Assembly (NCBI GenBank): GCA_965204725.1
Contig: OZ242005.1
Span: 5,280,001 to 5,344,000, forward strand
Source of the DNA: Candidatus Latescibacterota bacterium
GTDB taxonomy: Bacteria > Latescibacterota > UBA2968 > UBA8231
Length of the DNA stretch: 64,000 bases
Direction: 5' to 3'
In this document: piece by piece, positions 11,427 to 56,705 of the stretch
How the letters are laid out: each line of letters starts with the position of its first letter
Position numbering within the stretch: the stretch's first letter is position 1
Program-made: the position numbers and the translations under genes
The notes under the pieces: generated by a model
Seen by the model: the letters and a program-made list of their open reading frames with translations, nothing else
What the model was told of the DNA's origin: nothing
Database searches by the model: none

Positions 11427-11465
11427 AACGGCCTTGTGATTGGACTGAGGGGGCAAAAATATGAC

Positions 11466-11504
11466 AAAAAAGGACGGGTAGATCAACGAAGACCTACCCG
11501 TCCT
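11466..11504 (-). terminator. Rho-independent terminator of 11537..12505
   Basis: 11-bp stem AGGACGGGTAG/CTACCCGTCCT with an adjacent A-run on the + strand (U-tract on minus). Confidence 0.8.
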
Positions 11505-11536: not shown

Positions 11537-12505
11537 TTATCGACCGACCGAAGCCTTGATATGGCCCCAGCTATCGTTCTCGACCGAAGTATCCGGCGCG
11601 TAATTTGCGAGCGCGTCTGCGTCGAGCGGCAGCAAGACAAAGTCGGAAAACGAACTGGCGTTGCCAAAGATGTCGGACTGGCCGCCCAACGTCCACTTGG
11701 CCGTCCACGGGTTTCTGTCTTCGGCGTCTTCCGGGCCGTTGTCGTTATCGACGACCTGCAAACCAGCGCCGACAATTTCCAACTCGACGAAGTCGTGCTG
11801 TTCGCTCAGCTCGGGACCCTGCCAGTTGAAATCGTCCCAGCCAATGGTGTACCACTCGGCTTGGAAATTGGCCTCCGCGCCGTGGACGCCGTCGAGGTTG
11901 AAGGAGTCGCTGCAGCACTGGTACGGCTCGTCGCCGTGCCAAGTCGAGCTGGACATCCAAAACCAGCTCCAGCCATTGGGATCGCTCCCAGACGTAATGG
12001 GCGGCCAGCGGTAATGCGAGGTCTGGGTCTGGCCGCCGGTGAAGAGCTTATTCTCTTCTTCGGTCAGGTCGCCAGCAATGCCCGCGCCGCCAGCGTGGAA
12101 CCAGCCACCGGAGTGGTCGGAGTCTAGGCCGATCTCAATCGAGTCGTCTTGGCCGCAGCAGCCAATGCCGCCGGCATCGCGATCCCAAACGTCATCAAAG
12201 CGGTCGAAGACATAGTAGATGCGATCCAATTCGTCGTTCCAGCCCATGGCAAAACGAAAGAACAGATTGGAGCGGTCTTTTTCGCGCCCGACATCGCCTT
12301 CGCCGACGATAATATCGGGATCGTCACTGTCGAGCCACACCTCGGCTGGCAGAATGTCCCACTCGGAGATGTCGCCATCGAGGACGGGCAGTTTGTCGGT
12401 CGGCCACTGGAAGGCACCAAAGACCCTTCCTTCGGGAATGTGGGCGAAGGCGGATGAACTCACCAAGCCCATAATAGCAGCCAACGCCGCAATTTTCTTG
12501 CTCAT
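11537..12505 (-). CDS. Secreted CBM9/DOMON-like protein (His-x-Pro family, copy 2) with C-terminal TSVENDSWGHIK tail
   Basis: Start MSKKIAALAA with AGGGGG RBS; ...SAFA|HIPEG; PVLDGDISEW; DSIEIGLDSDH; two Cys-Cys pairs. Confidence 0.75.
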   Translation of the reverse strand: MSKKIAALAAIMGLVSSSAFAHIPEGRVFGAFQWPTDKLPVLDGDISEWDILPAEVWLDSDDPDIIVGEGDVGREKDRSNLFFRFAMGWNDELDRIYYVFDRFDDVWDRDAGGIGCCGQDDSIEIGLDSDHSGGWFHAGGAGIAGDLTEEENKLFTGGQTQTSHYRWPPITSGSDPNGWSWFWMSSSTWHGDEPYQCCSDSFNLDGVHGAEANFQAEWYTIGWDDFNWQGPELSEQHDFVELEIVGAGLQVVDNDNGPEDAEDRNPWTAKWTLGGQSDIFGNASSFSDFVLLPLDADALANYAPDTSVENDSWGHIKASVGR

Positions 12506-12592
12506 GCTACAACCCCCTATGTTGGTTGAATGAGAAATGAGTGATGAAAAACGCCCCACAACTACAAAACGCATGAGGCGAAAGATTTTCAA

Positions 12593-14381: not shown

Positions 14382-17318
14382 CTACAATCCGGCAAAGACC
14401 GAAAGGAACACGAGGCCCGAGGTCTTCCGCTCCGCATCTCCGCCCTTAATCTCCAGCGAGCGCCGATCAAACCGCACCCCCACCTGAGTCGTCAGGTCGT
14501 ACCCGGCATAGGCGCGCGTGCTCGTCAGTTGGCAGGCCAACACCGTGCCGCGAAAATCGCCGGTCCGCTCTTGGGCCGCCAGTGGCCCTTCGTCGGTTTC
14601 GAGGTCGTAGAAGTAGCGTCCTTCAATGCCTACCTGCACCTGAGAGCTGTGGAGAATCGGGAAATTCGCCAGCACCATGTAGAGCAGGTCGTAGCTGCGT
14701 TCCCGCAACGCACTGCGGCTGAAGGGCACGCGGCGCGTAAATTCGCTCTTAATGCGCGGGGAAATGGCGACGGACTTCCACGAGAACGAATAGGAGACCT
14801 TGTCGATCAACCCGACAAAACTCGACATCTCGCGGCCATTGCGGCCCGCAGGGCCCAAGGGATCGAAGGCCACCACCGGCCCACCCGCGTCGTCCAAGAG
14901 CACCCGGCCCTGCTCGTCCCGGGCTAATACCGCCTCGGCCTCGCGCTGCTTCCACACCTCCATTTTGAAGCGGTGGCGGGTGCTCCAGCCGCTGGGGTTG
15001 TCGTACTCCCAGTCCGAGTAGAACGTGTTGATCCACGTATTTTCAGCGGCCAGCAGGTCGGGCACGGGCACATTGCTGCCCGCTGTCTCGCTGAATTGGC
15101 CGAACTCGGCGCGCGGCACGATCCACTGCACGAGGGGATCCTCGATATTGTCCTCGGCCCGCCGCACCATGTCGAAGAGCCGCCAGCGGCCCAGCGTGGG
15201 GTGGGTCTTGGTCAGGGTAAAGATCCCGTAGAAGGTATCGTTGTCGCGGGCGGCTTGGCGCATGGCTTGGCGCAGGCGGCCGACTGTGAGCCGAATTTCG
15301 GGATTGACTTGGACGCTGGTGTAAAAATTGTACCCCCAGTGGTCTTTCTTGTAGGGATAATCGGGCTCGTCGTCGTTTTCAAAGCGATCGACCCAGCCGT
15401 TGTTGTTCAAATCAATGCCAAAGAGAAACTCGGGCCGGTCCACCTCGTAGCGCAGAAAAGGCTCTTCGTAGTCCGGGAAAAAGTTCTGCCGCTCGCCGTT
15501 GCTGTTTTGGTTGAAGTCGGAAAGAAAGTCGCCGTTTTCGTCGTACCCGGGAAAAACCGCTGGATCGGCCACGCCGTTGGCCCGCACCCGAAACGTCTGC
15601 CCGGGAATGGGAATCAAGCTGCCCTGAAAGCGGCGCAACTGATCGGGATGCCGGTCGTTGTCGTCGTTGTCATCGACAAAGTCATAAGACTGGATGATGG
15701 CTTCGGGCGAATAGTCAACCAAGCCACGGCCATCCACGGGCCGCACGTTGGTGCTGTATCCGTCGTCCATCCCAAAGCCTTCGAGAAAAAATCGCCACGG
15801 ACCAAAAGCCCGCGCCACGTTGACCATGTAGGCCACGTCGTGCCGGTCGCCGACCGTGCCGGCAATGGCCTCGTGCTTCTTTAGGGTCGTCGTGGGGTAC
15901 TTGCGATACCGGGTGCTGACGTTGAACTCGCCGTAGAAGTCGAACCCGTACCAATCGCGCATCTCAGCGGTGAAGCCGTATATCTGGCTCGCGGTGGGCA
16001 GCCCGTAGTCAAAGGCCACCTCTTGCTGATTGAGGCGGTTTTTGATGTTGCCGGCCGCGCGCGCCACCTGAAGAAATTGCGGCTGATCTACCGGATTGGT
16101 CTGCCGGTCGGACGCGACTTCCACCCGGTAATCGTTGGCCAGAATGAGTCGAAACCGCACCTTCTTGATCGCGGTCACCGCATCCTCGGCCTCGGCCGAG
16201 CTCAGCCCCAAGCTCTGCTGCAATAGCAGGCGCAAGGTCCCTACTTCGTCTTCCCCGTCTTCGACCGCCAGCGGGTATTTGAGCGTTATGCGCTCCGGGC
16301 CATCGGCGGTGAGGAAGCCGTCGCGCACCTTGCCCCCTTCTCGCAACGGGCGGTAGCCTATGCTGCTGCCAGTGATGACCGTATCCCTCGGCACCAAAGC
16401 CACGCTGTCGCCGGCCGCCACCTCGCGCATCAAAGTCGTTGTGATCTCCACATCGTCGCTGAAGAGCACGGCCCCGCCCTCGCCGTCTTCGGGCGAATCG
16501 TCGGACAGCCGCACGACGAGCAATTCGAGCCGCCGGTCCAACTGGCCCGAGGTCAGCAAACCCGTAAAGGGGCTTTCCTGAAAGCTCTCCAAGGCCCCGT
16601 TGTTGCTGTGGGAATTGATAAAGGTCGTGCCCAAAGTCAAGTGATCGCCGACATCGGCCTCAAAGCGCAGGGCGGATAAATTGGTCGCGTTTTCTAGCTG
16701 CCGAGTCGGAAAATCTGGGCTGATGTCGATGATTGGCGACGAGATCCGCGAAAACAACCCGGTCCCCCGCAAGCGCTGGCTGGCCAAGCTAAGCACCACG
16801 CCATTGAAGCCGGTCTTGCGAAAAGTCAGGGGCGTGAGCGTCGTAAAAAGCTCGTCCCCGACCACGATCGAATAGCTGTAATCGCCGCTGGTATCCGAGG
16901 AGATGATGAGGCGGTTGAACCAGCTTAGGTACTCGCCGCGTTTGGTGACCTGATTGCTGGCGCTGGTCAGCGGTTGGGTTTGCCGCCAATCGTAGATGAG
17001 CCAGCCGCGGGTGATCAAATCGCCGTAGGGATCGTAAAAGTAGAACCCCTCTTGGCTGCGCGACACGTAGCGGAGAAAAGGCTCGCGCGCATAGTTGGTG
17101 TACTGCCACTGGCGGCGGCCGTACTCGGTAAACAGCTCCTGCGGCAAGTACCAGCGCTGAATGGTTGGGTCCAGCGCGTCGATCAGCACCGACCGGCCCG
17201 CGGCCGAGAACACGCGGCGTTCGTCGGCTCGGTGGCCGAGGCGATTGCCGTAGTCGATCTGGGCATGGACCGCACAGGCGCACAGGAGCAGCACCCATTT
17301 CGCTCGCAACGCGCCCAT
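14382..17318 (-). CDS. Large predicted outer-membrane beta-barrel protein of unknown family, copy 1
   Basis: Signal peptide VHA|QIDYGNRLG; many amphipathic beta-strands; acidic DDNDDNDRHPD/DENGDFLSD/DLNNNG loops; terminal strand LVFLSVFAGL; TAATG coupling to the upstream paralog. Confidence 0.7.
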   Translation of the reverse strand: MGALRAKWVLLLCACAVHAQIDYGNRLGHRADERRVFSAAGRSVLIDALDPTIQRWYLPQELFTEYGRRQWQYTNYAREPFLRYVSRSQEGFYFYDPYGDLITRGWLIYDWRQTQPLTSASNQVTKRGEYLSWFNRLIISSDTSGDYSYSIVVGDELFTTLTPLTFRKTGFNGVVLSLASQRLRGTGLFSRISSPIIDISPDFPTRQLENATNLSALRFEADVGDHLTLGTTFINSHSNNGALESFQESPFTGLLTSGQLDRRLELLVVRLSDDSPEDGEGGAVLFSDDVEITTTLMREVAAGDSVALVPRDTVITGSSIGYRPLREGGKVRDGFLTADGPERITLKYPLAVEDGEDEVGTLRLLLQQSLGLSSAEAEDAVTAIKKVRFRLILANDYRVEVASDRQTNPVDQPQFLQVARAAGNIKNRLNQQEVAFDYGLPTASQIYGFTAEMRDWYGFDFYGEFNVSTRYRKYPTTTLKKHEAIAGTVGDRHDVAYMVNVARAFGPWRFFLEGFGMDDGYSTNVRPVDGRGLVDYSPEAIIQSYDFVDDNDDNDRHPDQLRRFQGSLIPIPGQTFRVRANGVADPAVFPGYDENGDFLSDFNQNSNGERQNFFPDYEEPFLRYEVDRPEFLFGIDLNNNGWVDRFENDDEPDYPYKKDHWGYNFYTSVQVNPEIRLTVGRLRQAMRQAARDNDTFYGIFTLTKTHPTLGRWRLFDMVRRAEDNIEDPLVQWIVPRAEFGQFSETAGSNVPVPDLLAAENTWINTFYSDWEYDNPSGWSTRHRFKMEVWKQREAEAVLARDEQGRVLLDDAGGPVVAFDPLGPAGRNGREMSSFVGLIDKVSYSFSWKSVAISPRIKSEFTRRVPFSRSALRERSYDLLYMVLANFPILHSSQVQVGIEGRYFYDLETDEGPLAAQERTGDFRGTVLACQLTSTRAYAGYDLTTQVGVRFDRRSLEIKGGDAERKTSGLVFLSVFAGL

Positions 17319-20131
17319 TACTGGATTCCGGCGTACACGGTGATGAAGCTAGTCGTCGAATTGCTGCTTTCGCTGCCCTTGGCAAAGCCGCTGTCTTGCT
17401 CTAGCACCAACTCTTCCTGAGTGCGCCCGTAGCGCAGGCCGATCTGGGTCGTCAGGCGATACCCCATGTAGTCCGAGGAATTAGACAGTTGCACGGCCAC
17501 GTTTATGCTGCTCTCGTCGCCCGTTTCCGTGGTGATGCCGTTGGCGACCATGGCGTCCTCGTCGCGCATCAAGTCCCGCAGCAGCAGTTGCTCTACCCCT
17601 CCCATGAGCACGGTGTGCTTGAGCACTGGCAGTTGAGCCAGCAGCATAAAGCTGCCGGTCCACTCCTTGCGCTCGTCCTCTTGCACCAAAAACGGCGTGC
17701 GCCGCAAGTATTCGCTCTTGAACTTGGGCTGGAGGCTGAAACGACCCAAGTCGTAGGTATAGTCGAACTTGTTGATCAAGCCGAAGAAGCTCGTGTCGGT
17801 CCGCAGGCGGCGGCCGTCTATGTCGCGGGGATCGTCTTGGTTTTGGCGATAGAATTCGTACTTGAACTTGTTGATGATGTTGAGCCGCTCAATGCCCACG
17901 TAGTCGAACCCGAGCCACAGCGAATTGACCCAAGTGTCTTGGGCCGGCAGAATGTCGGGGACTAGGGGCTGGATGGCCGGGGCATCGACGTAAGGCGTGG
18001 GGGCGCGCCGGTCGTCTGGAATGGTGTCGGCGACCTTTTTCAGCGCGTCAAAAACTCGCAACCGCCCCACGCCCGGCACGTCGCGGTCAAAGGTAAAGAG
18101 CGCGTACTGGACGCGGCTCGAGCGATCGGCCGAGATCATCTGCTCGTCCGCCTGCCCCAAAGTCAGCCGCGTCCCCGGCACGATCTCGGCCCCGGCGAAC
18201 ACATTGTAGCCCTGCCGGTCGGTCTTGTAGGGATAATCCGGCAAGTCGTCGTCCTCAAAGCGGTCGATCCAATCGTTGTTGTTCAGGTCGATGCCAAAGA
18301 GGAATTCGGGCCGGTCCACCGCATAGCGCAAGAACGGCTCTTCGTAGTCGGGAATGAGGTTGTTGACCGTGCCGTTGTCGTTTTGGTTGAAGTCCGAGAT
18401 AAAGTCGTTGTTCTCGTCCCACCCGGGAAAGATGAGCCGGTCGTTGGCCGAACCCGCGCGGATCCAGTCGGGGTATTGGTCTTGGTCGTCGTTGTCCTCG
18501 ACGAACTCGTAGAAGTTGCGCTGGGAGTTGTCGTACTGGATGTCGCCGTTGGCATCAACCAAAAAAGCCGTGGTCGAATACGCGTCGTCCATCGCATAGA
18601 CCTCGCCGAAGAAGAACCACGGATGGAACTGACGGGAGAGGTTGAAAAACCAAGCGTCGGACTGCTCAGTGGCAATTTTGTGGTTCTTGCCCGCCGTAAA
18701 CAGCGCGGCGTTGGGATACTGAAAGTAGCGCTTGTTGCGGTCCCACTCTCCATAGAAGTCAAACCCCCACAGCCCCTTACCCTCCACCGTAAAGCCGCCG
18801 ACTAGGTTGCCCGTCGGCAGGCCGTAGTCAAATTTGACGAGTTGGAGGTTGGAAATGTCCTTCACGTTTCCCTCGGCTCGCCGCAGGGTAATCAGCGCCG
18901 GCTCGCTGGCGTCGATGGTCTCAGCACTCAGGGGTGCGGCCGGCATGGCGCGGCGGCCCGTCTGGCGGTCGGACCACATCTCCACCTTGAAGTCATTGCC
19001 CAAGACGTATTCAAATTCGACGGCCACGATCGCGGTGGGGTCTGGCCCGATGTAGGCCGGATCGTTGAAGTCGTAGTTGAGCACGATGCGCTCGTACCCG
19101 TCGGCGGCCGTGTACCCCTGCCGTTCAAACCCGCCGAACTTAATCGGCCACTCCGCGCCGGCGCGCACGACCTCCTCGGCCTCAAACACCTGCTCCTTGT
19201 TCGTCTCAAAGTCGCGGCTGATGATGCGCACCCGGTCGCGGAACAAAGCCGCGCCCCCCTCGCCGTCCTCGGGCGTGTCGTCGCTGAGAATGATGGCAAT
19301 GGCCGTCAGCGGCGTACTGCTCTGGCCGGAAGTGAGGCTGCCGGCGATCAAGTCGCCGCTGAACAGATCGAGCGTGGTGTTGGTATTGCGGGCATCCACT
19401 AGGGTCGCGCCCACCTCGATGAAGTCGCCGACCTGCACCGTGCCGCGCCCGCCGAACATGGTCGTGGTATTGGTGCGGGTCTCCGGCTCGCGAGTTTCGC
19501 CCAAAATGGGGTCGCTGATCCGCGAGGCGAGAATCGTGCCGGCGTATTTGTCGGCCATGAAGTCGATCTGGACGCCATTGAAACGAGGCCGCGAGAAGGT
19601 CAACGGCGTCAGGGTCGTGCGCAGCAGATTGCCGACCGTAATGGCATAGTAGTACTGGCTCTGGGAGTCGCCGCCAATGGTGACCCCGTTGAACCAAGAG
19701 TCGAAGCGGGCATTCTGAAAGATGCTGCTGCCGAGTTGGCCGGGTTGGTTTTGGCTCCAGTCGTAGATCAGCCAGCCGCGCCCGATGAAGTTGCCGTAGA
19801 AATCGTAGAAGTAGTCGCCTTCGCGGTGGATGTTGACATAGCGCCGAAACTCTTCCTTGGCGTAGTTCGAGTACTCCCACTGCCGCCAGCCGTATTCATT
19901 GAAAAGCTCTTGGGGGATGTACCATTTTTTAATAGCTGGATCGAGCGCGCCAAACAGGACCCCCGGTCCGCGCGGCTCAAAGCTGACCGCCCCGCCGCGC
20001 TGGCGGCCCAAGCGGTTACCATACTCTTGGGCTTGGGCTTCAGCCGTGCCGGCCAACAACGCCAGCGCGGCCCAACCAATCAGCCCCCACATTCTAAACG
20101 CTTGCAAGTCATCTCTCCCTAATTTTTGCAT
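17318..20131 (-). CDS. Large predicted outer-membrane beta-barrel protein, copy 2 (true start may be ~20107 or 20092)
   Basis: AQA|QEYGNRLG; ALDP..KWYIPQELFNEY..RQWEYSNYA; PDYEEPFLRY.VDRPEFLFGIDLNNN; ends SFITVYAGIQ. Confidence 0.7.
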   Translation of the reverse strand: MQKLGRDDLQAFRMWGLIGWAALALLAGTAEAQAQEYGNRLGRQRGGAVSFEPRGPGVLFGALDPAIKKWYIPQELFNEYGWRQWEYSNYAKEEFRRYVNIHREGDYFYDFYGNFIGRGWLIYDWSQNQPGQLGSSIFQNARFDSWFNGVTIGGDSQSQYYYAITVGNLLRTTLTPLTFSRPRFNGVQIDFMADKYAGTILASRISDPILGETREPETRTNTTTMFGGRGTVQVGDFIEVGATLVDARNTNTTLDLFSGDLIAGSLTSGQSSTPLTAIAIILSDDTPEDGEGGAALFRDRVRIISRDFETNKEQVFEAEEVVRAGAEWPIKFGGFERQGYTAADGYERIVLNYDFNDPAYIGPDPTAIVAVEFEYVLGNDFKVEMWSDRQTGRRAMPAAPLSAETIDASEPALITLRRAEGNVKDISNLQLVKFDYGLPTGNLVGGFTVEGKGLWGFDFYGEWDRNKRYFQYPNAALFTAGKNHKIATEQSDAWFFNLSRQFHPWFFFGEVYAMDDAYSTTAFLVDANGDIQYDNSQRNFYEFVEDNDDQDQYPDWIRAGSANDRLIFPGWDENNDFISDFNQNDNGTVNNLIPDYEEPFLRYAVDRPEFLFGIDLNNNDWIDRFEDDDLPDYPYKTDRQGYNVFAGAEIVPGTRLTLGQADEQMISADRSSRVQYALFTFDRDVPGVGRLRVFDALKKVADTIPDDRRAPTPYVDAPAIQPLVPDILPAQDTWVNSLWLGFDYVGIERLNIINKFKYEFYRQNQDDPRDIDGRRLRTDTSFFGLINKFDYTYDLGRFSLQPKFKSEYLRRTPFLVQEDERKEWTGSFMLLAQLPVLKHTVLMGGVEQLLLRDLMRDEDAMVANGITTETGDESSINVAVQLSNSSDYMGYRLTTQIGLRYGRTQEELVLEQDSGFAKGSESSNSTTSFITVYAGIQ

Positions 20132-20142
20132 AATCTGAGCAG

Positions 20143-22386
20143 CTAGTACGCCACCCCGACGACCCCGATTTTCCGCACTTGGCCCGTGCCGGCGCGTAGC
20201 GAGACGCTAAACGTGTAATGCCCCGGCGGCACGTACCCTCCGTCGTCGTCCCGGCCATCCCACGGCTGGGCAAAGCGGCCACTGATGGCCTCGCTATCGA
20301 CCAAGGCCCGCACCAAGCGGCCGGACAGATCGAAAATCGACACCTGCACTGGCGAGGGCCGCACGATATTGGTGATGTCGTACTGGACGAGGACGCGGTC
20401 GTTGGTGCCATCGCCGTTGGGCGTAAACACCGGCGAATTCACGGCCACATTGGCCAAGAGCTCCTTGCTGATGGGCACGGCCACCGAAAGATTTTCTTCT
20501 AGCGGAGTGCCCACCGGCTGGAGGTCGGAGTCGGCAAAGCCAGCCGCGCTCAAGTCGGCGGCATTGCCGGCCACGACGCCCTGCCCAATGGTCGTCTCGA
20601 CCGCACGGTTGAAGGCCCGGCCGACAAAGGTCGTGCCAAAGCGCAACACCCCGTTGTCGAATTCCACCTCCAAGACCGCCCCGTCTTCTTGGATGAGCGG
20701 GAAGGAAATGGCAAAGCGGTCGTCGCGCACTTCGTCGATGGAGATGCCATTGCTGGCTTGGGGCAAGTTCGCCAAGGACGCGCCGGAAAAATCCGCCTCT
20801 TGGACCGCGCCGCCGGGCCGCTCAATGCGCACGCGCCCGATGGCCTCGACTCGCAGGGGGGTCTCTATCTCAAAGGCGTCAAACCCGCGCTGCTGACCCG
20901 AGGACTTGTTGAGCACCGCGTACAAAAACCGGGTGTTTTTCCCCACGGCCGCGGAGCGCGGCGAGATCTCGGCGATCAGCTCTTGGGCAAAGGGCGGCGA
21001 AATCGCGTCGAAGGCCAAGCCGCCTACGGTGGCCGCCGACTCAAAGTCGTCGCTAAAAAAGTCAATGGAAAACTGGAAGTAGCGGCGCGGACCCGGCGAG
21101 CTAATTGGGACGCCGGCACCGTCTATGGGGAGCTGGTCTTGGCTGACGATGCCGGACGCCGAATAGGGGGGAGACCAGCCGCTCCAGTTGTTGACATCGT
21201 CGCGGATGACTCCTTTGTCCTCGCCCCGCAACGCGCTGTAATCGGCCTCGTCGAGGGTGACGAGAGCTTGCTGGTCCAGCGGCAGATCCTTGAACACCCC
21301 GAGGGCCTCGCGCACATCTACTTCGTCGTTGTCCAGCACGTTTTCGACGAGGGCCTTTAGCTCGGCATCCTCGATGTCTTCGGCCCGCTTCCACGGCACC
21401 TCCACATTGGCCGTTGAGGTGCCCGAGCGATTGCCCGCTCGAGCGCCGCCGCCCACGCGGAAGATGCGCTCGCCCGGACGGACCTTGTTGAATTCGACCG
21501 GGGCCGGATCGACGCCCGTCCGCGTGCGAATGCGCAAGCGGGACAGATTTGCGTCGCCTCGGGCGTCTTGGACCCAGCGCAAGTTGCCGAACAGGGCCAA
21601 GTCGCCAAAGTCGAAAATGTTGGACACATAGCTCGCTTCGGGCACAAAGCCCGTGCCGAAAATCTGGAACTCGGCCATGTCGAAGCCGGCCGCAGTCAGC
21701 ACCTTGAGCCGCACGAAGCGCACGTATTGCGGATCAATGCGGACATCGACCACGGGTTGGTCGTTTTGGGTCTCGACCGCGACGGTTTGCAAAATCGGCA
21801 CGCCTTCAAAGGAGTTTTCCGGCGTGCCATCGTTGATGAAAATCTCGTACCCGCGCAGGAATTCGTTTTGGAAGGGAAATTCGACCGAGGGGAAATCCGG
21901 GTCGCCGTTGCGCGGAAAGAATTTGAAGCGATTGAGGCCAAAGCGCGCCCCGAGATCCAAGTCGATGATCAGCCCCAGCACTCGAGCGCTTTGAGTGCCC
22001 CCAGAAGCGCGCATATCCAAAGCCGTGTCGCCGTCGTTGTCGATCAAATTGGACAACGCCGCCCGAATGGAGCGATTGTTCGGCGAATCAATGCGACCGC
22101 CGCGCAACGGCGAGTTGATGCCGACCGCTATGTTGCGGGTGGTATCGGCGCGCTGGGGTGCGATGAAATAGGGCAGGCCCTCGGGCGCAAAGTCAATGAC
22201 GCCACCGGGGGCGTTGGTTTTTTCAATCGCGGTCGCGCTGCGGATGACCACGGCCGGGAGATCGCCCCCGCCGCTCTCCCAAATCAGGCCCTCTTCGCCG
22301 CCGATGATCACGACTTCCGCAACCGCCGAGACCGCGAAAAACAAGAGGCCGGCCACGAGGCCGGCCGAGCGAAAAGCTGTGTGCAT
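20143..22386 (-). CDS. Secreted discoidin-like + FlgD-Ig CTD protein
   Basis: Start moved to MHTAFRSAGL (signal peptide); LDLGARF..FFPR..DMAEFQIFG; RTRTG; FTPNGDGTND..WDGRD; ends VGVAY. Confidence 0.8.
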   Translation of the reverse strand: MHTAFRSAGLVAGLLFFAVSAVAEVVIIGGEEGLIWESGGGDLPAVVIRSATAIEKTNAPGGVIDFAPEGLPYFIAPQRADTTRNIAVGINSPLRGGRIDSPNNRSIRAALSNLIDNDGDTALDMRASGGTQSARVLGLIIDLDLGARFGLNRFKFFPRNGDPDFPSVEFPFQNEFLRGYEIFINDGTPENSFEGVPILQTVAVETQNDQPVVDVRIDPQYVRFVRLKVLTAAGFDMAEFQIFGTGFVPEASYVSNIFDFGDLALFGNLRWVQDARGDANLSRLRIRTRTGVDPAPVEFNKVRPGERIFRVGGGARAGNRSGTSTANVEVPWKRAEDIEDAELKALVENVLDNDEVDVREALGVFKDLPLDQQALVTLDEADYSALRGEDKGVIRDDVNNWSGWSPPYSASGIVSQDQLPIDGAGVPISSPGPRRYFQFSIDFFSDDFESAATVGGLAFDAISPPFAQELIAEISPRSAAVGKNTRFLYAVLNKSSGQQRGFDAFEIETPLRVEAIGRVRIERPGGAVQEADFSGASLANLPQASNGISIDEVRDDRFAISFPLIQEDGAVLEVEFDNGVLRFGTTFVGRAFNRAVETTIGQGVVAGNAADLSAAGFADSDLQPVGTPLEENLSVAVPISKELLANVAVNSPVFTPNGDGTNDRVLVQYDITNIVRPSPVQVSIFDLSGRLVRALVDSEAISGRFAQPWDGRDDDGGYVPPGHYTFSVSLRAGTGQVRKIGVVGVAY

Positions 22387-22523: not shown

Positions 22524-24233
22524 ATGATCTCAACCCAGCCCTTTCGGCGCGATCGTCGCCTATCGCTCCTGTGTTTCTCCGTCCTTTTCCTCGCGTCCTG
22601 CGGCGGCCAGACCGACCCTCCCGAGGAGCCGGATGTCGTCTTGGCGACCGTAGCCGGCGACCCCATTACGCTCGCGGCTTTCACCGAGTTCAGCACCCTC
22701 ATCCCGGCGGGCATGAAAAAGGGCGACACCCCGCTCGCCAAGAACCGCCAAGTCCTCAACAGCCTAATCGACAAGCGGCTCTTGCTCGCCGAGGCCGAGG
22801 CCCTGCAACTCGCCGACGACCCCGCGATTCAAGCCGAGCTGGCCTTCTTTGCCAAAAACCGCTTGCTTGACTTGTACACGCACCGCGAAATATCGCAAAG
22901 AATCGTCGTTACCGACGAGGAGATGGAGGAGCACTATCGAGCCACGCACCGCGATCGCGCCCTCCGCTTCAGCGGCATCATGCTCAAGACCCGCGAGGAA
23001 GCCGAGGACATTTTGCAGGCCGTGGCCGACGGGGCGCAGTTCATGGAGCTGGCCAAGGGGCACTCGCTGCACCGCGATAGCGGCGAACAGGGCGGCGATG
23101 TGGGAGGCTACAAACTCAAGGACAAGGTCCTGCCGGCCATTGCCGAAGCGATCTTCCCCCTCGCCGTGGGCGAGGTATCCCAACCCATCCGCTTCCAGTT
23201 TGCCGGCGAGCCTCACTACACGGTCTTTCAAGTCACCGACGAGATGCCCCTGCCGCTCGCCGCGTCCGAGCGCAAGGTGCGGGAGGAAATTTTTGGCCGC
23301 AAGCGGGCCGCCCGCTACCAAGCCCTCCTCGATTCGCTGCAAGGCGCGTACGGCCCTGAGCTGCGCGACGAGCCGATTCGCGCCCTCAACCAGCACAGCG
23401 AGCAGGCCGCAGACGACCTATACGCCTTGCCGGCTGCGCTGGGCGACGAGGCCATCGTCACCTTTCGCGGCGGTCAAATCAGTTGCCGCGAGTTCCTCGA
23501 TATGGCGCGGCAAATGCGCGCCGGCCGGCCGGAACTAGCCGACTCCGCGCGCGTCGCCTTCCTCCTCAAAACCGCGATCATTCCGGCCTTTCTCTTTGCG
23601 ACCGAGGCCCGCGCCCTCGGGCTAGACCAAGACCCCGACCTCCTCAAGCGCGTCCGCGACAAGCGAGACGATCTGTTTCTCAACGCCCTGCGGCAGCGCT
23701 ACGTCGATCAGCACGTCACAACCACTCCAGCCGAGGCCCGCGCTTTCTACGATAGCCACCCGAAAAAATTCACCGCGCCGCTGACGACCGAAGTGGTAGA
23801 AATTCTCGTGGCTTCCGATTCTTTGGCCCAGCGGCTCAAGCGCGAAATCCTCGCCGGCGCCGATCCAGCCCCGCTGGCCCGCGCCCACACCCTCCGTCCC
23901 GGTGCCGACCACCACGACGGGCACCTGACCCTCAGCCCCTACACCAAGGCGTATTATCAGGGCATCTACGACTTGGCGCATTCCCTGCCCATCAGCCAAG
24001 TCGGCGGTCCCGTGCCGGTACAGGGGGGCTACTCGATCTTCAAGGTCCTCGACCGCCACGAAAAAAAGCATCCCTACGACGCCACCTCGCGTCGCCGCGC
24101 CACGGCGTACGTAAAGCTCGACAAATCCAAGCGCGGGTACGTGCAGTACGTGCGCGGCCTGCGGGATCAGCACCCGGTCGAGGAGTTTGCCGACGCCATA
24201 GAACGCGCCCTCGGCGCTCCGCCCCCTAACTGA
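22524..24233 (+). CDS. PpiC/parvulin-type peptidyl-prolyl isomerase foldase lipoprotein (PrsA/SurA-like, two rotamase-like domains)
   Basis: Lipobox FLASC; VLATVAGDPIT; FMELAKGHS..SGEQGGDVG..IFPLAVGEVSQPI; second domain VGGPVPVQGGYSIFKV. Confidence 0.8.
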   Translation: MISTQPFRRDRRLSLLCFSVLFLASCGGQTDPPEEPDVVLATVAGDPITLAAFTEFSTLIPAGMKKGDTPLAKNRQVLNSLIDKRLLLAEAEALQLADDPAIQAELAFFAKNRLLDLYTHREISQRIVVTDEEMEEHYRATHRDRALRFSGIMLKTREEAEDILQAVADGAQFMELAKGHSLHRDSGEQGGDVGGYKLKDKVLPAIAEAIFPLAVGEVSQPIRFQFAGEPHYTVFQVTDEMPLPLAASERKVREEIFGRKRAARYQALLDSLQGAYGPELRDEPIRALNQHSEQAADDLYALPAALGDEAIVTFRGGQISCREFLDMARQMRAGRPELADSARVAFLLKTAIIPAFLFATEARALGLDQDPDLLKRVRDKRDDLFLNALRQRYVDQHVTTTPAEARAFYDSHPKKFTAPLTTEVVEILVASDSLAQRLKREILAGADPAPLARAHTLRPGADHHDGHLTLSPYTKAYYQGIYDLAHSLPISQVGGPVPVQGGYSIFKVLDRHEKKHPYDATSRRRATAYVKLDKSKRGYVQYVRGLRDQHPVEEFADAIERALGAPPPN

Positions 24234-24235
24234 AA

Positions 24236-25696
24236 TTGAGCGGGGTCGTGCTCCTGTTCCTTTTGCTCGCTTGGGGCTGCGCCCGCGACGATCCCCGGCT
24301 AGCCGAGGGCCAGCAGCACTTCTACAACCGAGATTACCAAGCCGCGATTGCGGTCTTACAGCAAATCGTCCAAGGCCCGTCCCCCTCGCCAGCGGCCTAT
24401 CGCTATCTAGGGCGTTGCTACCTCCAAATTGGCCAGTACGACCAAGCGCGGGAAACAGCGCATGCCGGCCTAGCCCACGCTCCCAGCGATCCCGAGCTCT
24501 ACGATCTACTCGGGGCCATCGAGATGACCCGCGCATTCGCCGAGGCCCGGTACAGCGAGACCCATGCCGCCCTATCGGCCTTCCAACGGGCCATTGAACT
24601 CGACCCACACCGTGCCACCACCCACTACAACCTCGGCCTCGTGCATAGCTACCGCGACAGCACCCACCACGCCGAGCGCGCTTGGCTAGCCGCCTTGCAG
24701 GTGGATTCCACGCTCGCGCCCGCCCATAAGAAGCTGGGCCTGTACTACCGACGCCAAGGCGCATTAGACCAAGCCCTGAGTCACCTGCAACGCGCCGTGC
24801 AGTACGCGCCTGAAGACGCCGAAGCGCATTTCCATCTCGGCTTGCAGCACCGCGCTCGCGGGCACTACGACCAAGCTGTGGTCGCCCTAGAGCGGGCCGC
24901 GGCGCTCAACCCCTATTCGCCCCAAGTTCACTTCAATCTGTCTCAACTCTACTTGCGCCTCGGCCAGCGCGAGCGGGGAGAAAAAGCCCTCGCGAACTCG
25001 GAAATCCTCCGCCAGCACCAGCGGGGGATCGGCTCGGAGCAATCCCTGCCCGATGTGAGCGCGGTGGCCATTGGCTCGGCTACGGCCCGCTACAACCTCG
25101 CTTTGCACCTCTCCTTGCAGGGCCAATACGACCAAGCCATTCTCGAATATCAAAACGCCCTCGCGATCAACCCCAAGCTAAAAGACGCGCACAGCAGCCT
25201 AGGCGTCCTGTTCACCTATCAGGGCGATTTAGCCGCGGCGGCCGAGCATTTTCGCCAAGCCCTCGCCCTCGACGGCGAAGACCCGCTCAGCCACGCTCGG
25301 CTGGGGATGGTTCTCCTCAAGCAGCAACGCTATGCAGCGGCTCGGGCCAGCCTGCGGCGCGCGGCCGCCCTCGATTCTAGCTTGCACGAGGCGGCCCACG
25401 GGCTCGGCTTGACCGCGGCCCGCACGGGCGATTTGGCAGGGGCCATCGCCCACTTTGCCGAGGCCGCCCGACTCAGCCCCACGAGCGCACTAGCCCACTT
25501 AAACTTAGGGGTGGCCTACGCGAAATCGGCCCACTTTGCCGAGGCCGCCCGCGCGTATTCCCGCGCCGTTGAACTGGACCCCGCCAATGAACGCGCCCAT
25601 CGCTACCTCAGCGACGCGTACCGGGAGTTGGGCCACCGGGAAAAAAGCCGCGCCCACCGCGAAAAGGCGCGGCAGCTAGCGTCAAAGGCCCCCTAG
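24236..25696 (+). CDS. Tetratricopeptide-repeat lipoprotein
   Basis: LAWGC lipobox; repeated A..LdP....ahynLG TPR units. Confidence 0.85.
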   Translation: MSGVVLLFLLLAWGCARDDPRLAEGQQHFYNRDYQAAIAVLQQIVQGPSPSPAAYRYLGRCYLQIGQYDQARETAHAGLAHAPSDPELYDLLGAIEMTRAFAEARYSETHAALSAFQRAIELDPHRATTHYNLGLVHSYRDSTHHAERAWLAALQVDSTLAPAHKKLGLYYRRQGALDQALSHLQRAVQYAPEDAEAHFHLGLQHRARGHYDQAVVALERAAALNPYSPQVHFNLSQLYLRLGQRERGEKALANSEILRQHQRGIGSEQSLPDVSAVAIGSATARYNLALHLSLQGQYDQAILEYQNALAINPKLKDAHSSLGVLFTYQGDLAAAAEHFRQALALDGEDPLSHARLGMVLLKQQRYAAARASLRRAAALDSSLHEAAHGLGLTAARTGDLAGAIAHFAEAARLSPTSALAHLNLGVAYAKSAHFAEAARAYSRAVELDPANERAHRYLSDAYRELGHREKSRAHREKARQLASKAP

Positions 25697-25700
25697 CCCC

Positions 25701-27596
25701 GTGCCACGCATCCTCTACTCGGCGGCCTGCTGCCTCGCGGTGGCCCTGCCATCGCACGCGCTGACCATCTATCGCATCGGCGGGGCCGACCTGCCCAAAC
25801 CGGCGTTGGAAGCCGAGTACGAGTTCGTGCAACTGTCTTGGGAAGCGGTCGATCCCCAGCAGCACGGCCAAGCCCAATGGGTCGCGCTAGAGCCAGAGCG
25901 CATCGGCCCGTTGTTGCTAACCCCCTCGGTCAACCTAGCACCGCTGTTGGAATCCCTCGGGGGCCGCATCCTCGTCCTAGAGTGGAACGGCTGGCGGCAG
26001 TGGTACGAAGACGACATCCTGATCTTCGACGGCGACCCAGAAACCGCGTACCTAGGGGATGGGCGCTATCTCCGCGTGGCTGGCTACGGCCCCCAGCACA
26101 AGTACTGGGTCTTCGATTTTGGCGGGCGGTTTTTCGTCGATCGCGTGCGCTTTTATCCGCGCCCGCGCTTTGCGGACACCCGCTTTGTCGAGCGCTTCAT
26201 CTTGGGGACCAGCGATGGCGATCCCCTCGCCGACGGCACCCGCGAGTACGAGGTTAGCTGGCGCAACAGCACCCTCGACTTCGACATCGTCCACCGCATC
26301 CGCGAGAACACCCAAGCCGTCATGGAACTGGCCCTGCCCGACGAACCCATCCAGCAGGTGTTCATCGAGCTGCCCGAAAACAATCGCGGGATCTGGGAAA
26401 TCGCCGAATTCGAGATCTACGGGGCCGGCCCGGCCGCCTTCTCTCGCTATACCTCCAACCTCATCGACTTGGGGCAACCGGCCGCCTTGGGTGCCTTGAC
26501 TTGGGGCGGCCAGCTCGACGCGGAGGCCCGCATCGAGCTGAGTGTCCGCACGGGTGACGACGACGACCCCAACACCTATTGGCGGCGCACGTTTCGCGGC
26601 AGCGAGCGGACCCGCTTCGACGCGGCCGGCCAACCGCTCACCCTGCAAACCTACAACCAGCTACAACGGGGCGAGCAGGCCGGCTTCACCCCAGACGTCG
26701 AGGACTGGAACTTCTGGAGCGCACCCTTTGCCTTTGCCGCCGGTCGCGGGGTCATACCGGGCGATCGGCTGCGCCGCTACGCGCAATTTAGGGCCGAATT
26801 CCACTCGACCGCCGAGGCGACCGGCCATCTGGCGTACTTGCAGTTCAGCGCGTCCATCCCACCGCTGGCCTCCCAAGCCTTCGGGCACATCCACCCGCTG
26901 CGAGCACCGGTCCTAACCCCGACCCTCTTTACCTTTTATCTAGAGCCCCACATCGCAGCCGACGACCTCGGGTTTGACCACTTAGCCATCGCCACCACCG
27001 CCCAAGTGCAGGCTGTGGAAGCCGTGCGGATCGGCGGGATAGACGTTGCCCATATCGTTCAGCACACGGCCGAGGGGTTTGAAATGGCCTTGCCGCGCAT
27101 GGATCAGCAGCGGACCGGCGAGCAGGTCGAGGTCGATTTTTGGGCCGAGGTCTTCGCGTACAACACCCACTTTGCCGGGCGAATCCGCGACAGCACGCGC
27201 CCGTTTGAAGTGGCTCAGCCCGTGTCCCCGCAAACGACCAACAGCTTACAGGTGGCCTTGCTCAGCCTCGACCAGCCGCTCATCGGCCGCCTCGCCCTGC
27301 ATCCGCCGGCCTTCACCCCCAACGGCGACGGTCGCAACGACGCCGTGCAGATCGAATACGACCTTCTGTATTTAGTGGATGCAACGCGCGTGGAACTCGC
27401 CGTCTTCAACCTCGCCGGCCGCGCGGTGGGCGTCATCTACGACGGGCTTGCCACCAGCGGTCGCTTTGCCGTCGAATGGGACGGCCGCACTCTTAGCGGG
27501 GACCTCGTGCCGCCGGGGTCGTACCTCGTCCGCCTCACCGCAGCAATCGGCCGCGGCCAGCAGCGACGCCAAAGCCTCGTGTCGGTCGTCTATTGA
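25701..27596 (+). CDS. Secreted discoidin-like + FlgD-Ig CTD protein (LTIYRIGG subfamily, fourth copy, inverted)
   Basis: SHA|LTIYRIGG; collinear with the three genes at 5629..11426; FTPNGDGRND; ends VSVVY. Confidence 0.8.
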   Translation: MPRILYSAACCLAVALPSHALTIYRIGGADLPKPALEAEYEFVQLSWEAVDPQQHGQAQWVALEPERIGPLLLTPSVNLAPLLESLGGRILVLEWNGWRQWYEDDILIFDGDPETAYLGDGRYLRVAGYGPQHKYWVFDFGGRFFVDRVRFYPRPRFADTRFVERFILGTSDGDPLADGTREYEVSWRNSTLDFDIVHRIRENTQAVMELALPDEPIQQVFIELPENNRGIWEIAEFEIYGAGPAAFSRYTSNLIDLGQPAALGALTWGGQLDAEARIELSVRTGDDDDPNTYWRRTFRGSERTRFDAAGQPLTLQTYNQLQRGEQAGFTPDVEDWNFWSAPFAFAAGRGVIPGDRLRRYAQFRAEFHSTAEATGHLAYLQFSASIPPLASQAFGHIHPLRAPVLTPTLFTFYLEPHIAADDLGFDHLAIATTAQVQAVEAVRIGGIDVAHIVQHTAEGFEMALPRMDQQRTGEQVEVDFWAEVFAYNTHFAGRIRDSTRPFEVAQPVSPQTTNSLQVALLSLDQPLIGRLALHPPAFTPNGDGRNDAVQIEYDLLYLVDATRVELAVFNLAGRAVGVIYDGLATSGRFAVEWDGRTLSGDLVPPGSYLVRLTAAIGRGQQRRQSLVSVVY

Positions 27597-35735: not shown

Positions 35736-35915
35736 CCTAACAGGCAGGGCGTGAAAAGAGCAGAGAGCACAGGGATAGCATCCCGGCTTTCCGTCCGGGC
35801 CAGTTAAGAGAAGGCACTAGAGAAAATGCGGGACGGGCGGCCGTTGACCTTGCGAGGTCTGTCGGATCCGATCCCGAAATGGGCTTTAAGGGCCCTTCGT
35901 CAGAAAGAGGATAAG

Positions 35916-42933: not shown

Positions 42934-43064
42934 AGCAACCCTCCGCAATACGACCGAAAAAGGAACCTTTGCAAAAGCTACGCGCTCAATGACTCCGGTC
43001 AACACGTCATGTCCATTGTAAAACGTTTGCTTCGCTGCGCTTCATCTCCTTGCCTCTGCCGCCC

Positions 43065-51764: not shown

Positions 51765-53975
51765 TCAACCGCCGAAAATTTGTTCGATCTGGGCTTCCAT
51801 TTCTCGGCGCACCACCTTTTTCAGGCGGTAGGCGCGCTGGCCACGGCTAAAGGCCGCAAATTGAGCAGCCGCGTCGGCTGGGCGTCCAGTGCGTTGGTAG
51901 AGGTGGCCGAGAAATAGATGGGCTTGGTAGTCGTGCGGAGCAATCTGGAGCAGGTGTTCAAACAGGGGCACGGCCTCTGCATAGCGCGCTTGGCGGGCGT
52001 AGAGCATCCCCAAGCTCCAGTGGGGATGCGCGGCCTTGGGGGCGAGGGCGAGGGCGCGGCGCAAGAGTTTTTCAGCGTCCGCCAGCCGCTCGGTCGCCCC
52101 GAGGGCCATGCTCGGCCCTTGTTCGAGTTGGATGAGCAGGTCGGCGAGGCGGGTTGGGTACTCAGGCACGTGCGGCTCGCGCTGCACGAGCTGCTCAAAC
52201 TCGTCGCGGGCCGCGCGGTGTTGCCCTTGCTCCGCGTACAGGCGGGCCAGTTGATAGCGCACGACCGTCGAGTCTGGGTTCAGTTCGAGCGTGCGGCGAT
52301 AACATTGGGCTGCGCGCTGGGGTTGGTCCGTCATCAGGAGGGCGTAGCCGAGGCCGCCGTGCGCCGCGGCCCAGTTGGGGCGCACGACCGCGACCTCGGA
52401 GTACGCGGCCGCGGCCTCGTCGTAGCGCCGAGCGAGCAGCGCGGTGTGCCCGAGGAGAAAGCGCACATCCGCGTCGTGGGGCTGCGCCTTGAGGTACTGC
52501 CGATAGAGGGCCATCGCCTCGTCGTAACGCTCGGCCTCGCCGTGGAGGGCCGCCAGCGCGAGGAGCGGCGCGGCGAAGCTGGGGTCGCGGACCATGGCGC
52601 GGCGGTAGTGGCGGGCGGCGTGGGCCGGCATGTCCCGTTCTTCGTAGGCGTAGCCGAGGTAGTAGTGCTCGTGGGCATTGCCCGCTGGGTCCATCGCCCC
52701 GGTGGCGACGTTGCAAAAGACCAACAGGGCGGCAAAAGCGGCGAGCCCGGGCCGAGGCCGGTGCCACAGGACGCGCACTCCACAAGCCGCAAACAACAAC
52801 AGCACGGGCACGGCGGGCAGGCGATAGCGCCCGGTGACGAAAAACAAAACGACGGAAAGCGCGTAGCAGGCCACAAAGAGCGCGAGCAAGCGTCCCTCGG
52901 GCGTGGGCGAGCGCACAACGCCAAAAAGCCCCACCAGAGCCAGCGGGGCGACCAAACCGAAGGGAAACGCCAGCCCCTTTTTCCACAGCAGGATCGACAA
53001 AAGCGCGGAGTCGTTGCGGGCGAAGTACAGGTCGCGGTTGCGCGGGATCTCGTCGCCGCGCAGGAACAGGTAGCCCTTGTAGGCCAGCAAGCCCAAGAAA
53101 TCGAGCGGCTCGGCCGTTATGTATTGCCAAGATTGGGCGAAAAAATAGCGCGACTTGGCCGAAGGCTGCTCAAGGCTGGCGTGGCGCTCGGGCATTTCCA
53201 CCAGCTCGGTCCAAGCCCGTCCCGGGCGGATGCGAGTCGTCTGCTCGGAGTCGGCGTTGTTGCCGATGTAGAAGTTGATGCCCGCGTTGTGCGAGATGAG
53301 CACCCGATCGCCGCCGACAGCCCAGTTGCGATACGCGACCGGCGCGATGACTAAGGCACAGCCCAAGAGCAGGAGAGCCGGCGAGCGGAGCCGACGCTGC
53401 CGGTAGTAGAGATAGCCCAACAGCACGGGCGCGCAGAGCAGCACGTTGGCCACGGCGAGCGCGGACAGGCCCAGCAGCACCCCGGCTGCTAGGGCGCGCT
53501 GCCAACCGCCCGCGCCGACTACGAGCAACAGCACGAGCACGTTGAGGCAACAGGCCAGCAGGGTGGGCAGCAACTCGCCGCCAAAGTAGATGAGCGGCCC
53601 GTACAACGCCGCGGCAAAACCCGCGCCCAGCCCGACCCCCGCGCCAAAGACCCGGCGCCCCAACAGGCTTATGAGGACGCAGACGAGTGCGCCGAGGACG
53701 GCTTGGATGAGGCGCGGTAGGTAGAGGTCGTCCCCGGCGAGGGCAAAGAGGACGCCGAGGAGCACGGGGTAGAGCGGCGGTTGCCAGAAGGGAGCGGCCC
53801 GCCCCGCAAAGGAGACATCGCTGAAGTAGCGCGCGTCCTCGGTATAGGTGCGAGCATCGACGACGGGCGCGGTGAAAAGCGGGCTGGCGCGTATTTCGTG
53901 GAGGTAGTACAGGCGCGCTGACAGGGCGAGCGCGAAGACGGCCACCACCCCATAGAACACCGAGCGTCTAGCCAT
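51765..53975 (-). CDS. GT-C fold glycosyltransferase (PMT_2/GT39/ArnT-like) fused to TPRs
   Basis: Start moved to MARRSVFYG; PVVDARTY..FWQPPLYP; GINFYIGNN; FFVTGRYRLP; C-terminal TPR array. Confidence 0.8.
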   Translation of the reverse strand: MARRSVFYGVVAVFALALSARLYYLHEIRASPLFTAPVVDARTYTEDARYFSDVSFAGRAAPFWQPPLYPVLLGVLFALAGDDLYLPRLIQAVLGALVCVLISLLGRRVFGAGVGLGAGFAAALYGPLIYFGGELLPTLLACCLNVLVLLLVVGAGGWQRALAAGVLLGLSALAVANVLLCAPVLLGYLYYRQRRLRSPALLLLGCALVIAPVAYRNWAVGGDRVLISHNAGINFYIGNNADSEQTTRIRPGRAWTELVEMPERHASLEQPSAKSRYFFAQSWQYITAEPLDFLGLLAYKGYLFLRGDEIPRNRDLYFARNDSALLSILLWKKGLAFPFGLVAPLALVGLFGVVRSPTPEGRLLALFVACYALSVVLFFVTGRYRLPAVPVLLLFAACGVRVLWHRPRPGLAAFAALLVFCNVATGAMDPAGNAHEHYYLGYAYEERDMPAHAARHYRRAMVRDPSFAAPLLALAALHGEAERYDEAMALYRQYLKAQPHDADVRFLLGHTALLARRYDEAAAAYSEVAVVRPNWAAAHGGLGYALLMTDQPQRAAQCYRRTLELNPDSTVVRYQLARLYAEQGQHRAARDEFEQLVQREPHVPEYPTRLADLLIQLEQGPSMALGATERLADAEKLLRRALALAPKAAHPHWSLGMLYARQARYAEAVPLFEHLLQIAPHDYQAHLFLGHLYQRTGRPADAAAQFAAFSRGQRAYRLKKVVRREMEAQIEQIFGG

Positions 53976-53986
53976 GCGCTTCGCGC

Positions 53987-56650: not shown

Positions 56651-56705
56651 CTGCAATCCCTCCTCAGTGGTCAATGATAATTGGCCCCAAGCGTTCCAGC
56701 AATAA

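Follow-up and report, generated by a model that had tools for sequence, protein, structure and literature searches.

A phylum-restricted family of large, predicted outer-membrane beta-barrels genetically linked to type IX-tagged lectins in Latescibacterota

The stretch of DNA analysed here, referred to as the window, comprises 64,000 nucleotides (nt) of a Candidatus Latescibacterota genome (assembly GCA_965204725.1, contig OZ242005.1, forward-strand positions 5,280,001 to 5,344,000). It carries three genes for large predicted beta-barrel proteins at two loci, and each locus lies directly downstream of a gene whose product ends in a C-terminal domain (CTD) homologous to those of type IX secretion system (T9SS) substrates. 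These barrels belong to an unannotated, heavily expanded and phylum-restricted family whose genes are tied to a single class of genes for T9SS-tagged lectins. The barrel genes and the cargo genes in front of them are listed below in window coordinates, with lengths in amino acids (aa) and with some starts lying inside a longer open reading frame (ORF).

14382..17318, minus strand: barrel P0001, 978 aa, member of the "second-of-tandem" clade
17318..20131, minus strand: barrel P0002, 937 aa, member of the "first-of-tandem" clade
20143..22386, minus strand: cargo P0004, 747 aa from M23, with signal peptide, CBM32 domain, helical region, Ig-like sandwiches and a FlgD_ig/CHU_C CTD
53987..56650, minus strand: barrel P0003, 887 aa from a GTG at 56650, member of the clade "single barrel with about 1020-aa cargo"
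56706..59771, minus strand: cargo P0005, 1021-aa ORF with likely start MRLLAFLV (aa 19), containing an F5/8 type C domain and a CHU_C CTD

The tandem barrels overlap by a single base, position 17318 being common to the stop codon of P0002 and the start codon of P0001. P0002 begins with a signal peptide that ends in AEAQA, just before QE. For P0003, the longest ORF extends over 53987-56827; a GTG start at 56650, located 7 nt after the Shine-Dalgarno sequence GAGGAGGG and yielding the signal peptide MNRRWIGQMAIAVLWLGSAAAEA, confirms the start that had been assigned in a preliminary description of this DNA. That description had also recognised three paralogs with shared motifs, and the alignment bears this out. 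Sequence identity to P0001 amounts to 42% for P0002 and 44% for P0003, and the latter two share 48% with each other; a genome search with P0002 retrieves P0001 and P0003 with E-values of 2.8e-183 and 1.4e-255, far beyond chance. All three proteins share the motifs ALDP..WY.PQELF.EY..RQW.Y.NYA and L(S/R)DD.P.DG.GGA, an acidic block (FPG.DEN.DF.SDFNQN ... PDYEEPFLR..VDRPEFLFGIDLNNN.W.DRFE.D..PDYPYK.D) and a terminal [YF]AG[LI]. The position of both barrel loci immediately behind a CTD gene stands as well: a FlgD_ig/CHU_C domain is found at the C-terminus of either cargo, and the cargo stop codons at 20143-20145 and 56706-56708 are separated from the barrel starts by 11 nt and 55 nt, respectively.

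The fold of the family was assessed with an AlphaFold2 model of P0002, which was computed from a 41-row alignment and reached a predicted local distance difference test score (pLDDT) of 70.8 and a predicted template modelling score of 0.68. The model consists mostly of long antiparallel strands, with a block pLDDT of mostly 80-91 in the strand regions. Outside an inserted domain, the DSSP string of the model, from which alone the strand number and the placement of insert and loops were derived, indicates about 24 strands (range 22-28). In Foldseek searches, all 50 matches at E<=0.001 are outer-membrane barrels, including SlpA, LptD, ushers, MtrB, TonB-dependent transporters and porins, with TM-scores against the query of only 0.13-0.26. 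VIA-align likewise returned membrane beta-barrels only, namely bacterial outer-membrane proteins and the mitochondrial proteins VDAC, Tom40 and SAM. Its best match is SlpA (7zgx_A; Z 14.6, root-mean-square deviation (rmsd) 8.4, 401 aligned residues), followed by a plateau of unrelated barrels with Z 9-12.5. TonB-dependent transporters, whose 22-strand barrels are filled by an N-terminal plug, stand amid many unrelated barrels in this plateau (Z 9-11.7), and the ushers FimD and PapC (Z 11.0-11.8, 319-330 aligned), from a family of 24-strand barrels that have their plug between strands 6 and 7, do not rise above generic barrels either. As all structural matches are barrels and the plateau is formed by unrelated ones, the predicted fold class, a membrane beta-barrel, is secure, while no specific relative is singled out. 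The model and both structural searches thus agree with the transmembrane beta-barrel that the preliminary description had predicted. General features of outer-membrane beta-barrels are also present, i.e., a signal peptide, an antiparallel barrel and a C-terminal strand with an aromatic residue.

By sequence, these proteins are not routine TonB-dependent receptors or porins, nor do they belong with LptD. P0001-P0003 have zero matches in Pfam and NCBIfam, and 41 family members have none in Pfam at E<=10, which includes Plug (PF07715) and TonB_dep_Rec (PF00593). PDB chains, searched with a single sequence and with a 40-row family profile, gave chance matches only (E above 2), and no usher (PF00577), POTRA or DUF560 match was obtained for the window barrels or the 41 members. 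The SprA model TIGR04189 does not match any barrel; in this genome it matches at one other locus only (C1:3034166-3039466). DUF6029, a lead from the ESM Atlas (score 0.89), was dropped because its model PF19494 finds nothing in the genome and the 41 members lack Pfam matches.

Three regions of P0002 deserve separate mention:

19688..20029, minus strand: conserved N-terminal segment, aa 35-148, with ALDP..WY.PQELF..; pLDDT <50
18842..19366, minus strand: inserted beta-rich domain, aa 256-430, which carries LSDDTPEDGEGGA
18218..18496, minus strand: acidic block, aa 546-638; low pLDDT

Conservation among 34 paralogs, measured as the mean frequency of the top residue, peaks in the acidic block (0.75), which contains invariant D/N/E columns, and reaches 0.70-0.71 in aa 61-120 of the N-terminal segment; the C-terminal half is the least conserved part of the barrel (0.47). 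The strands of the insert (277-387) are modelled with a block pLDDT of mostly 79-91. Within the acidic block, the sequence DLNNN.WIDRFE corresponds to what we take, from the general definition of the motif, to be an EF-hand-like loop, and P0002 contains two further D/N-rich loops close to it. On this motif reading, the acidic loop looks calcium-binding. Most of the 34 paralogs terminate with F[IV]T[IV][YF]AGL, and in most of them the chain ends 0-4 residues past the last strand motif; neither a conserved cysteine nor a C-terminal tail was found in this set. Strand parity, counted from the C-terminus and combined with the alternation of short turns and long loops, would place the N-terminal segment, taken as aa 35-114, in the periplasm and both the insert and the acidic block on the outer side of the membrane.

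The cargo proteins P0004 and P0005 are homologous beyond their CTDs. In an AlphaFold2 model of P0004 (33-row alignment, pLDDT 81.8), residues from about aa 80 to aa 248 adopt a CBM32/F5-8 type C fold (best compared with 4a42_B; Z 15.5, rmsd 2.1, 123 aligned). A helical stretch and Ig-like sandwiches make up the other parts, and aa 555-747, which include the CTD, align with the C-terminus of PorU (6za2_B; Z 12.7, rmsd 2.4, 100 aligned). No catalytic domain was seen in the structural analysis of P0004. Both CTDs exceed the cut-off of the Pfam model CHU_C (PF13585; 29.5 and 32.2 bits, cut-off 27), and the FlgD_ig scores are similar. Going by CHU_C, the cargo CTD is type-B-like, and it is homologous to T9SS CTDs.

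The association between barrels and CTD genes extends well beyond the two loci of the window. In the genome from which the window was taken (5.43 Mb, 94% complete), a greedy caller yielded 4209 ORFs, 184 of which encode a C-terminal CTD according to a hidden Markov model (HMM) built from nine window CTDs. The family HMM identifies 38 barrel paralogs, and a translated search 41 matching places; the 38 barrels form 31 loci, seven of them tandem pairs. A CTD gene is located immediately upstream on the same strand at 24/31 loci and at position -2 in three more, and for most loci outside the window the coordinates imply short gaps or overlaps between cargo and barrel. In other genomes, the same arrangement occurs in 58 of the 72 loci with a callable upstream gene, and among the 14 exceptions, several appear to be due to errors in ORF calling. 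The adjacency to CTD genes is thus confirmed far outside the window, and co-duplication and co-occurrence point in the same direction. All 27 upstream CTD genes fall into a single 102-member family (single linkage), whose members are homologous outside the CTD; 73/102 lie within five genes of a barrel, and 13/102 have marginal matches to the type A model TIGR04183 (21.5-25.8 bits). TIGR04183 matches 71 of the remaining 82 CTD proteins, with a median of 34.6 bits, and just 3/82 are found near a barrel. The CTD proteins of this genome thus fall into two classes, of which the CHU_C/FlgD_ig-like one alone is linked to barrels.

Barrels and cargo have also diverged together. When the distances among 25 barrels were compared with those among their upstream cargo, the Mantel correlation was 0.66 when the cargo was taken without its CTD and 0.59 when the CTD was used; neither value was reached in any of 2000 permutations, and nearest neighbours were concordant in 16/25 barrel-cargo pairs. 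In a quick IQ-TREE phylogeny of 37 paralogs, from which one 737-aa paralog was omitted, the seven first-of-tandem barrels form one clade (SH-aLRT support 97) and the seven second-of-tandem barrels another (100). The internal groupings of these two clades match, with one fork in the second-barrel clade left unresolved. Single barrels with a cargo of 1020-1086 aa likewise form one clade, together with one barrel of a 679-aa cargo and one cargo-less barrel. The barrel and cargo modules were hence co-duplicated, although binding does not follow from co-duplication by itself. Partial correlations of barrel segments with the cargo CTD or the cargo body are all at or below 0.22, and therefore an interface cannot be named. 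A complex prediction for mature P0003 and the last 132 aa of P0005 returned a score of 0.00, which speaks neither for nor against binding.

These data bear on the simplest alternative, according to which the barrels, as unrelated porins or structural proteins of the outer membrane, have operons in common with surface proteins but no specific partnership. Operon neighbours can indeed be simply co-regulated envelope genes. Against this stand the restriction of the link to one CTD class, the mirrored clade topologies, the co-divergence of the pairs and the co-occurrence of both families across the phylum, and we consider a mere neighbourhood very improbable. Contigs from four RNA-library runs of a single study, in which such sequences hold a small share, carry relatives at about 91% identity and provide a weak hint of co-transcription: one contig (15809-18526) spans the junction between the two tandem barrels, and another (18801-20171) crosses the start of P0002 and extends 29 nt into the cargo gene only. 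DNA may be present in libraries of this kind, and one contig need not stem from a single transcript.

A word-indexed search revealed 957 relatives of the barrels, and an exhaustive search 742 clusters at 50% identity. All names seen are "hypothetical protein", and so far members have been found only in metagenome-assembled genomes titled Latescibacteria or Latescibacterota and Gemmatimonadetes or Gemmatimonadota; 78 loci retrieved from species genomes are nearly all titled Candidatus Latescibacterota. Of 151 sampled phylum genomes, 96 have barrels at E<=1e-10, including 64/64 of the window's own family, and 76 have cargo at E<=1e-30. No barrels were found in the 48 genomes of families f2 and f3, and the 50 genomes of families f2 to f4 have neither barrel nor cargo. 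In the family tallies and the genomes listed individually, cargo-positive genomes all appear barrel-positive, and no cargo-only case occurs there. Because the genomes of one phylum are related, these co-occurrences are not independent observations. Divergent relatives of the barrels without a cargo match at E<=1e-30 occur in genera g5 and g18 and in families f10, f5, f7 and f14. A first look at three genomes of g5 (G060, G086, G130) and one of g18 (G148) gave 117-184 barrel-profile candidates each; for G060, G086 and G148, E-values do not get better than about 1e-66 to 1e-70, and again no cargo match at 1e-30 was found. These genomes may hold an even larger, divergent barrel subfamily with a different partner. 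In the literature searched on Latescibacteria with T9SS, CBM32 and outer-membrane secretion, no published description of the barrel family was found.

Several gene families recur within six genes of the barrels. The seven largest of them are given here with the number of copies near barrels out of all copies in the genome:

PPIC-type peptidyl-prolyl isomerase (PPIase), about 567 aa, SurA/PpiD-like: 23/26
secreted family of about 318 aa without Pfam match, including P0276: 23/28
FG-GAP + UnbV_ASPIC family: 16/42
tetratricopeptide repeat (TPR) protein family: 12/27
DUF6785 + DUF6784 family, about 650 aa (e.g., C1:2422897-2424837): 10/28
family of about 254 aa without assigned function: 8/9
PMT_2 + TPR family: 7/10, five of the seven at position +1

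The PPIases are distributed as if every barrel locus had a private periplasmic chaperone. Within the window, the following neighbours accompany the two loci:

2977-5550, 5629-7554, 7577-9490 and 9501-11486, minus strand: four further cargo-family genes downstream of the tandem-barrel locus
11537..12592, minus strand: P0276, member of the secreted family of about 318 aa
12635..14370, minus strand: P0275, the gene immediately following the barrel pair, for a polytopic membrane protein that ends in TPR
22524-24233, 24236-25696 and 25701-27596, plus strand: divergent unit of PPIC-type PPIase, TPR protein and cargo-family CTD protein
51765..53986, minus strand: gene immediately following P0003, for a TPR-containing membrane protein of PMT_2 (GT-C-like) type
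59711..63989, minus strand: genes upstream of the second locus, i.e., TPR + FG-GAP/UnbV_ASPIC (59711-62002), TPR (61999-63447) and PPIase (63444 to the window edge)

P0275 shows an apparent frameshift near 12930-12950, where the ORFs 12817-14370 and 12635-13075 meet and the TPR continues in the second frame to 12635. Other genomes have a gene of about 580 aa at this position, and frame repair would restore that length; the frameshift could be an assembly error or could mark a pseudogene. A divergent pair of genes with the sizes of those in the unit at 22524..27596 recurs in other genomes, too. The longest ORF of the PMT_2-TPR gene reaches 54338 and thereby overlaps the end of P0003. In the four-gene cargo array, the paralogs at 5629-7554 and 9501-11486 have near-identical CTDs with few differences over 95 aa, which suggests a recent duplication or gene conversion. 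Further genes in the window include a 1057-aa fusion of a major facilitator-like membrane part, a spermidine-synthase-like part and TPR (48570-51743, minus strand), which is located downstream of the PMT_2-TPR gene; a defence-like pair of a GmrSD_N (DUF262-type) protein followed by a RiboL-PSP HEPN protein (35826-37663, plus strand); and a PIN-domain toxin with a FitA-like ribbon-helix-helix antitoxin (42278-43005, minus strand).

The neighbourhood helps to weigh a role in glycan uptake, in which the barrel would be an import channel and the CBM32 proteins would be surface glycan binders, together forming a TonB-independent analogue of SusC/SusD with about 31 loci for different substrates. The CBM32 fold of the cargo, the heavy expansion of paired loci, which resembles that of polysaccharide utilisation loci, and a large barrel with a conserved acidic loop that might narrow or gate a pore are compatible with this idea, and TonB-dependent transporters are indeed among the fold matches (BauA, Z 11.7; BT1762-1763, Z 10.5). 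Their scores are no higher than those of unrelated barrels, however, and 0/41 members match Plug or TonB_dep_Rec even under the permissive Pfam threshold given above. Moreover, Pfam matches of the representatives of the seven largest neighbour families contain no glycoside hydrolase, lyase, ABC importer or regulator. Glycan uptake appears unlikely.

The dedicated PPIases bear on a different possibility, namely that each barrel exports the neighbouring cargo through its own pore without the need for SprA, much as ushers, two-partner secretion pores and Slam handle their clients. Recognition would then rely on the CTD, and the PPIase and TPR proteins would act as periplasmic escorts. One barrel per cargo set, accompanied by a PPIase that is rarely found elsewhere, recalls chaperone-usher systems, and about 24 strands, an N-terminal segment and an early-inserted domain are also features of FimD and PapC, both of which are among the fold matches. 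On the other hand, this genome has SprA, PorU and PorV, and the cargo CTD is homologous to T9SS CTDs. Usher, POTRA and DUF560 models do not match, the fold scores of the ushers remain at the level of generic barrels, and strand parity would put the insert outside the cell and not in the periplasm. A dedicated translocon is in our opinion improbable, but like glycan uptake it is a serious competitor of the reading given below. The same low probability is assigned to a bolder version, in which the barrels would be cargo-dedicated conduits, i.e., pores of about 24 strands gated by the putatively calcium-binding, invariant acidic loop and the insert, which would export or flip CBM32 lectins with the help of a private SurA-like PPIase along a pathway distinct from the SprA route, with about 31 such conduits per genome.

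The T9SS context provides the background for the reading that we prefer. SprA is detected in this genome with 485 and 116 bits, PorU with 623 bits and an adjacent PorV (PF19572) with 62 bits. Type B CTD substrates of F. johnsoniae require a cognate PorP/SprF-like carrier that is encoded directly downstream (PMC12618676), the type B protein PG1035 is a binding partner of PorP, as SprB is of SprF (PMC9143113), and SprF serves both export and surface anchoring, with a CxC motif in its C-tail providing the link to GldK (PMC12635249). A T9SS may also occur in Gemmatimonadetes, according to PMC11285876. The parallel with type B CTD genes upstream of porP/sprF-like genes, to which the preliminary description had pointed, is thus real (PMC12618676), and the phylum has no recognisable PorP/SprF. 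PorP (TIGR03519) is above its cut-off in 0/151 phylum genomes; PF11751 and TIGR03519 do not match P0001-P0003 at E<=0.1, and the 41 members have no Pfam match of this kind at E<=10. A whole-genome search with PF11751 gave no match, though the controls were equally silent. Two weak PorP-like matches (44 and 43 bits, below the cut-off) were rejected, since they are not located beside CTD genes and have a weak TraF_2 match only.

These observations lead us to favour, tentatively and with slightly less than even confidence, the view that the barrels serve individual cargo proteins as carriers or anchors in the outer membrane and thereby fill the role of PorP/SprF. The cargo would cross the inner membrane by Sec and exit via the SprA translocon. 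The cognate barrel would then take over the cargo CTD and hold the lectin at the cell surface, while the SurA-like PPIases and TPR proteins specific to each locus would serve either barrel or cargo as periplasmic chaperones; the tandem first and second barrels probably act as a fixed pair. In this sequence of events, we infer the T9SS dependence, the direct contact between barrel and cargo, and the anchoring.

A number of observations argue against a PorP/SprF-like function. The barrel has three times the size of PorP/SprF and is unrelated in sequence, and it is devoid of the periplasmic C-tail and the conserved cysteine, unlike SprF as described in PMC12635249. The cargo CTDs score only 22.4 and 17.3 bits with the NCBIfam type B model TIGR04131 (cut-off 35), 4/31 loci have no upstream CTD gene and 29/102 cargo genes lie away from any barrel. 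SprA is found in 146/151 phylum genomes, barrel-less ones included, and its co-occurrence with barrels thus carries no information. GldL and GldM gave no match in this genome, with the controls also silent, and GldK gave partial matches of 66 bits only (cut-off 350); the T9SS may therefore be atypical here, with motor and ring divergent or absent. Finally, a barrel of about 24 strands with a strictly conserved acidic loop would suit a channel as well.

Comparison with known systems defines what is shared and what is not. Like PorP/SprF, the barrels are outer-membrane proteins encoded directly downstream of a CTD cargo gene (24/31 and 58/72 loci), with many cognate pairs per genome, some orphan cargo, a surface-exposed cargo and a CTD that matches the type B model CHU_C. 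They differ by their length of 880-980 aa, compared with about 273-292 positions in the PorP/SprF HMMs, by the missing C-tail CxC and by extra conserved N-terminal, insert and acidic modules; in addition, they also occur as tandem pairs and in a different phylum. PorV is another outer-membrane barrel that partners T9SS cargo, and its homologue adjoins PorU in this genome. It is, however, a single general shuttle for type A CTDs that is related to the OMPP1/FadL/TodX transporters, whereas the barrels described here occur in many copies, are linked to cargo genes and have no sequence relation to it; in this genome, a weak Toluene_X match falls on a PorP-like candidate. With SusC/SusD, the family shares the combination of a large barrel and a glycan-binding surface protein in tens of paralogous loci, but it lacks plug, TonB box and TonB_dep_Rec domain, the partner is a T9SS CTD protein instead of a lipoprotein, and catabolic genes do not recur in the loci.

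Similarities to FimD/PapC include the strand number of about 24, the N-terminal segment, the insert in the first third of the barrel and the gene for a periplasmic helper; this helper is a PPIase and not an Ig-fold chaperone, though, PF00577 does not match and the fold score is unspecific. The best structural match, SlpA of Deinococcus (7zgx, 8ae1; Foldseek E 3.3e-8), is also a very large barrel of similar length, but with 8-10% identity, TM-scores of 0.21-0.26 and no counterpart of its SLH and coiled-coil parts in our barrels, only the barrel class is shared. Slam, as an outer-membrane barrel encoded beside the surface protein that it handles, with TPR involvement, is comparable in its genetics. 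In Slam, however, TPR is joined to a small DUF560 barrel and the clients are lipoproteins, whereas our barrels are linked to CTD cargo and do not match DUF560.

Knowledge on T9SS biology rests almost entirely on Bacteroidota. The system described here belongs to a sister phylum within the Fibrobacterota-Chlorobiota-Bacteroidota (FCB) group that has SprA, PorU and PorV. If the barrels are carriers or anchors, the principle of one cognate barrel for each type B cargo would have arisen twice, with unrelated proteins, and about 31 natural cognate pairs in one genome would then offer a system for studying recognition specificity. For this genome alone, the analysis assigns 38 barrels, 102 cargo genes and 26 PPIases to a common context, and its results suggest that the display of lectins is central to the biology of uncultured Latescibacterota.

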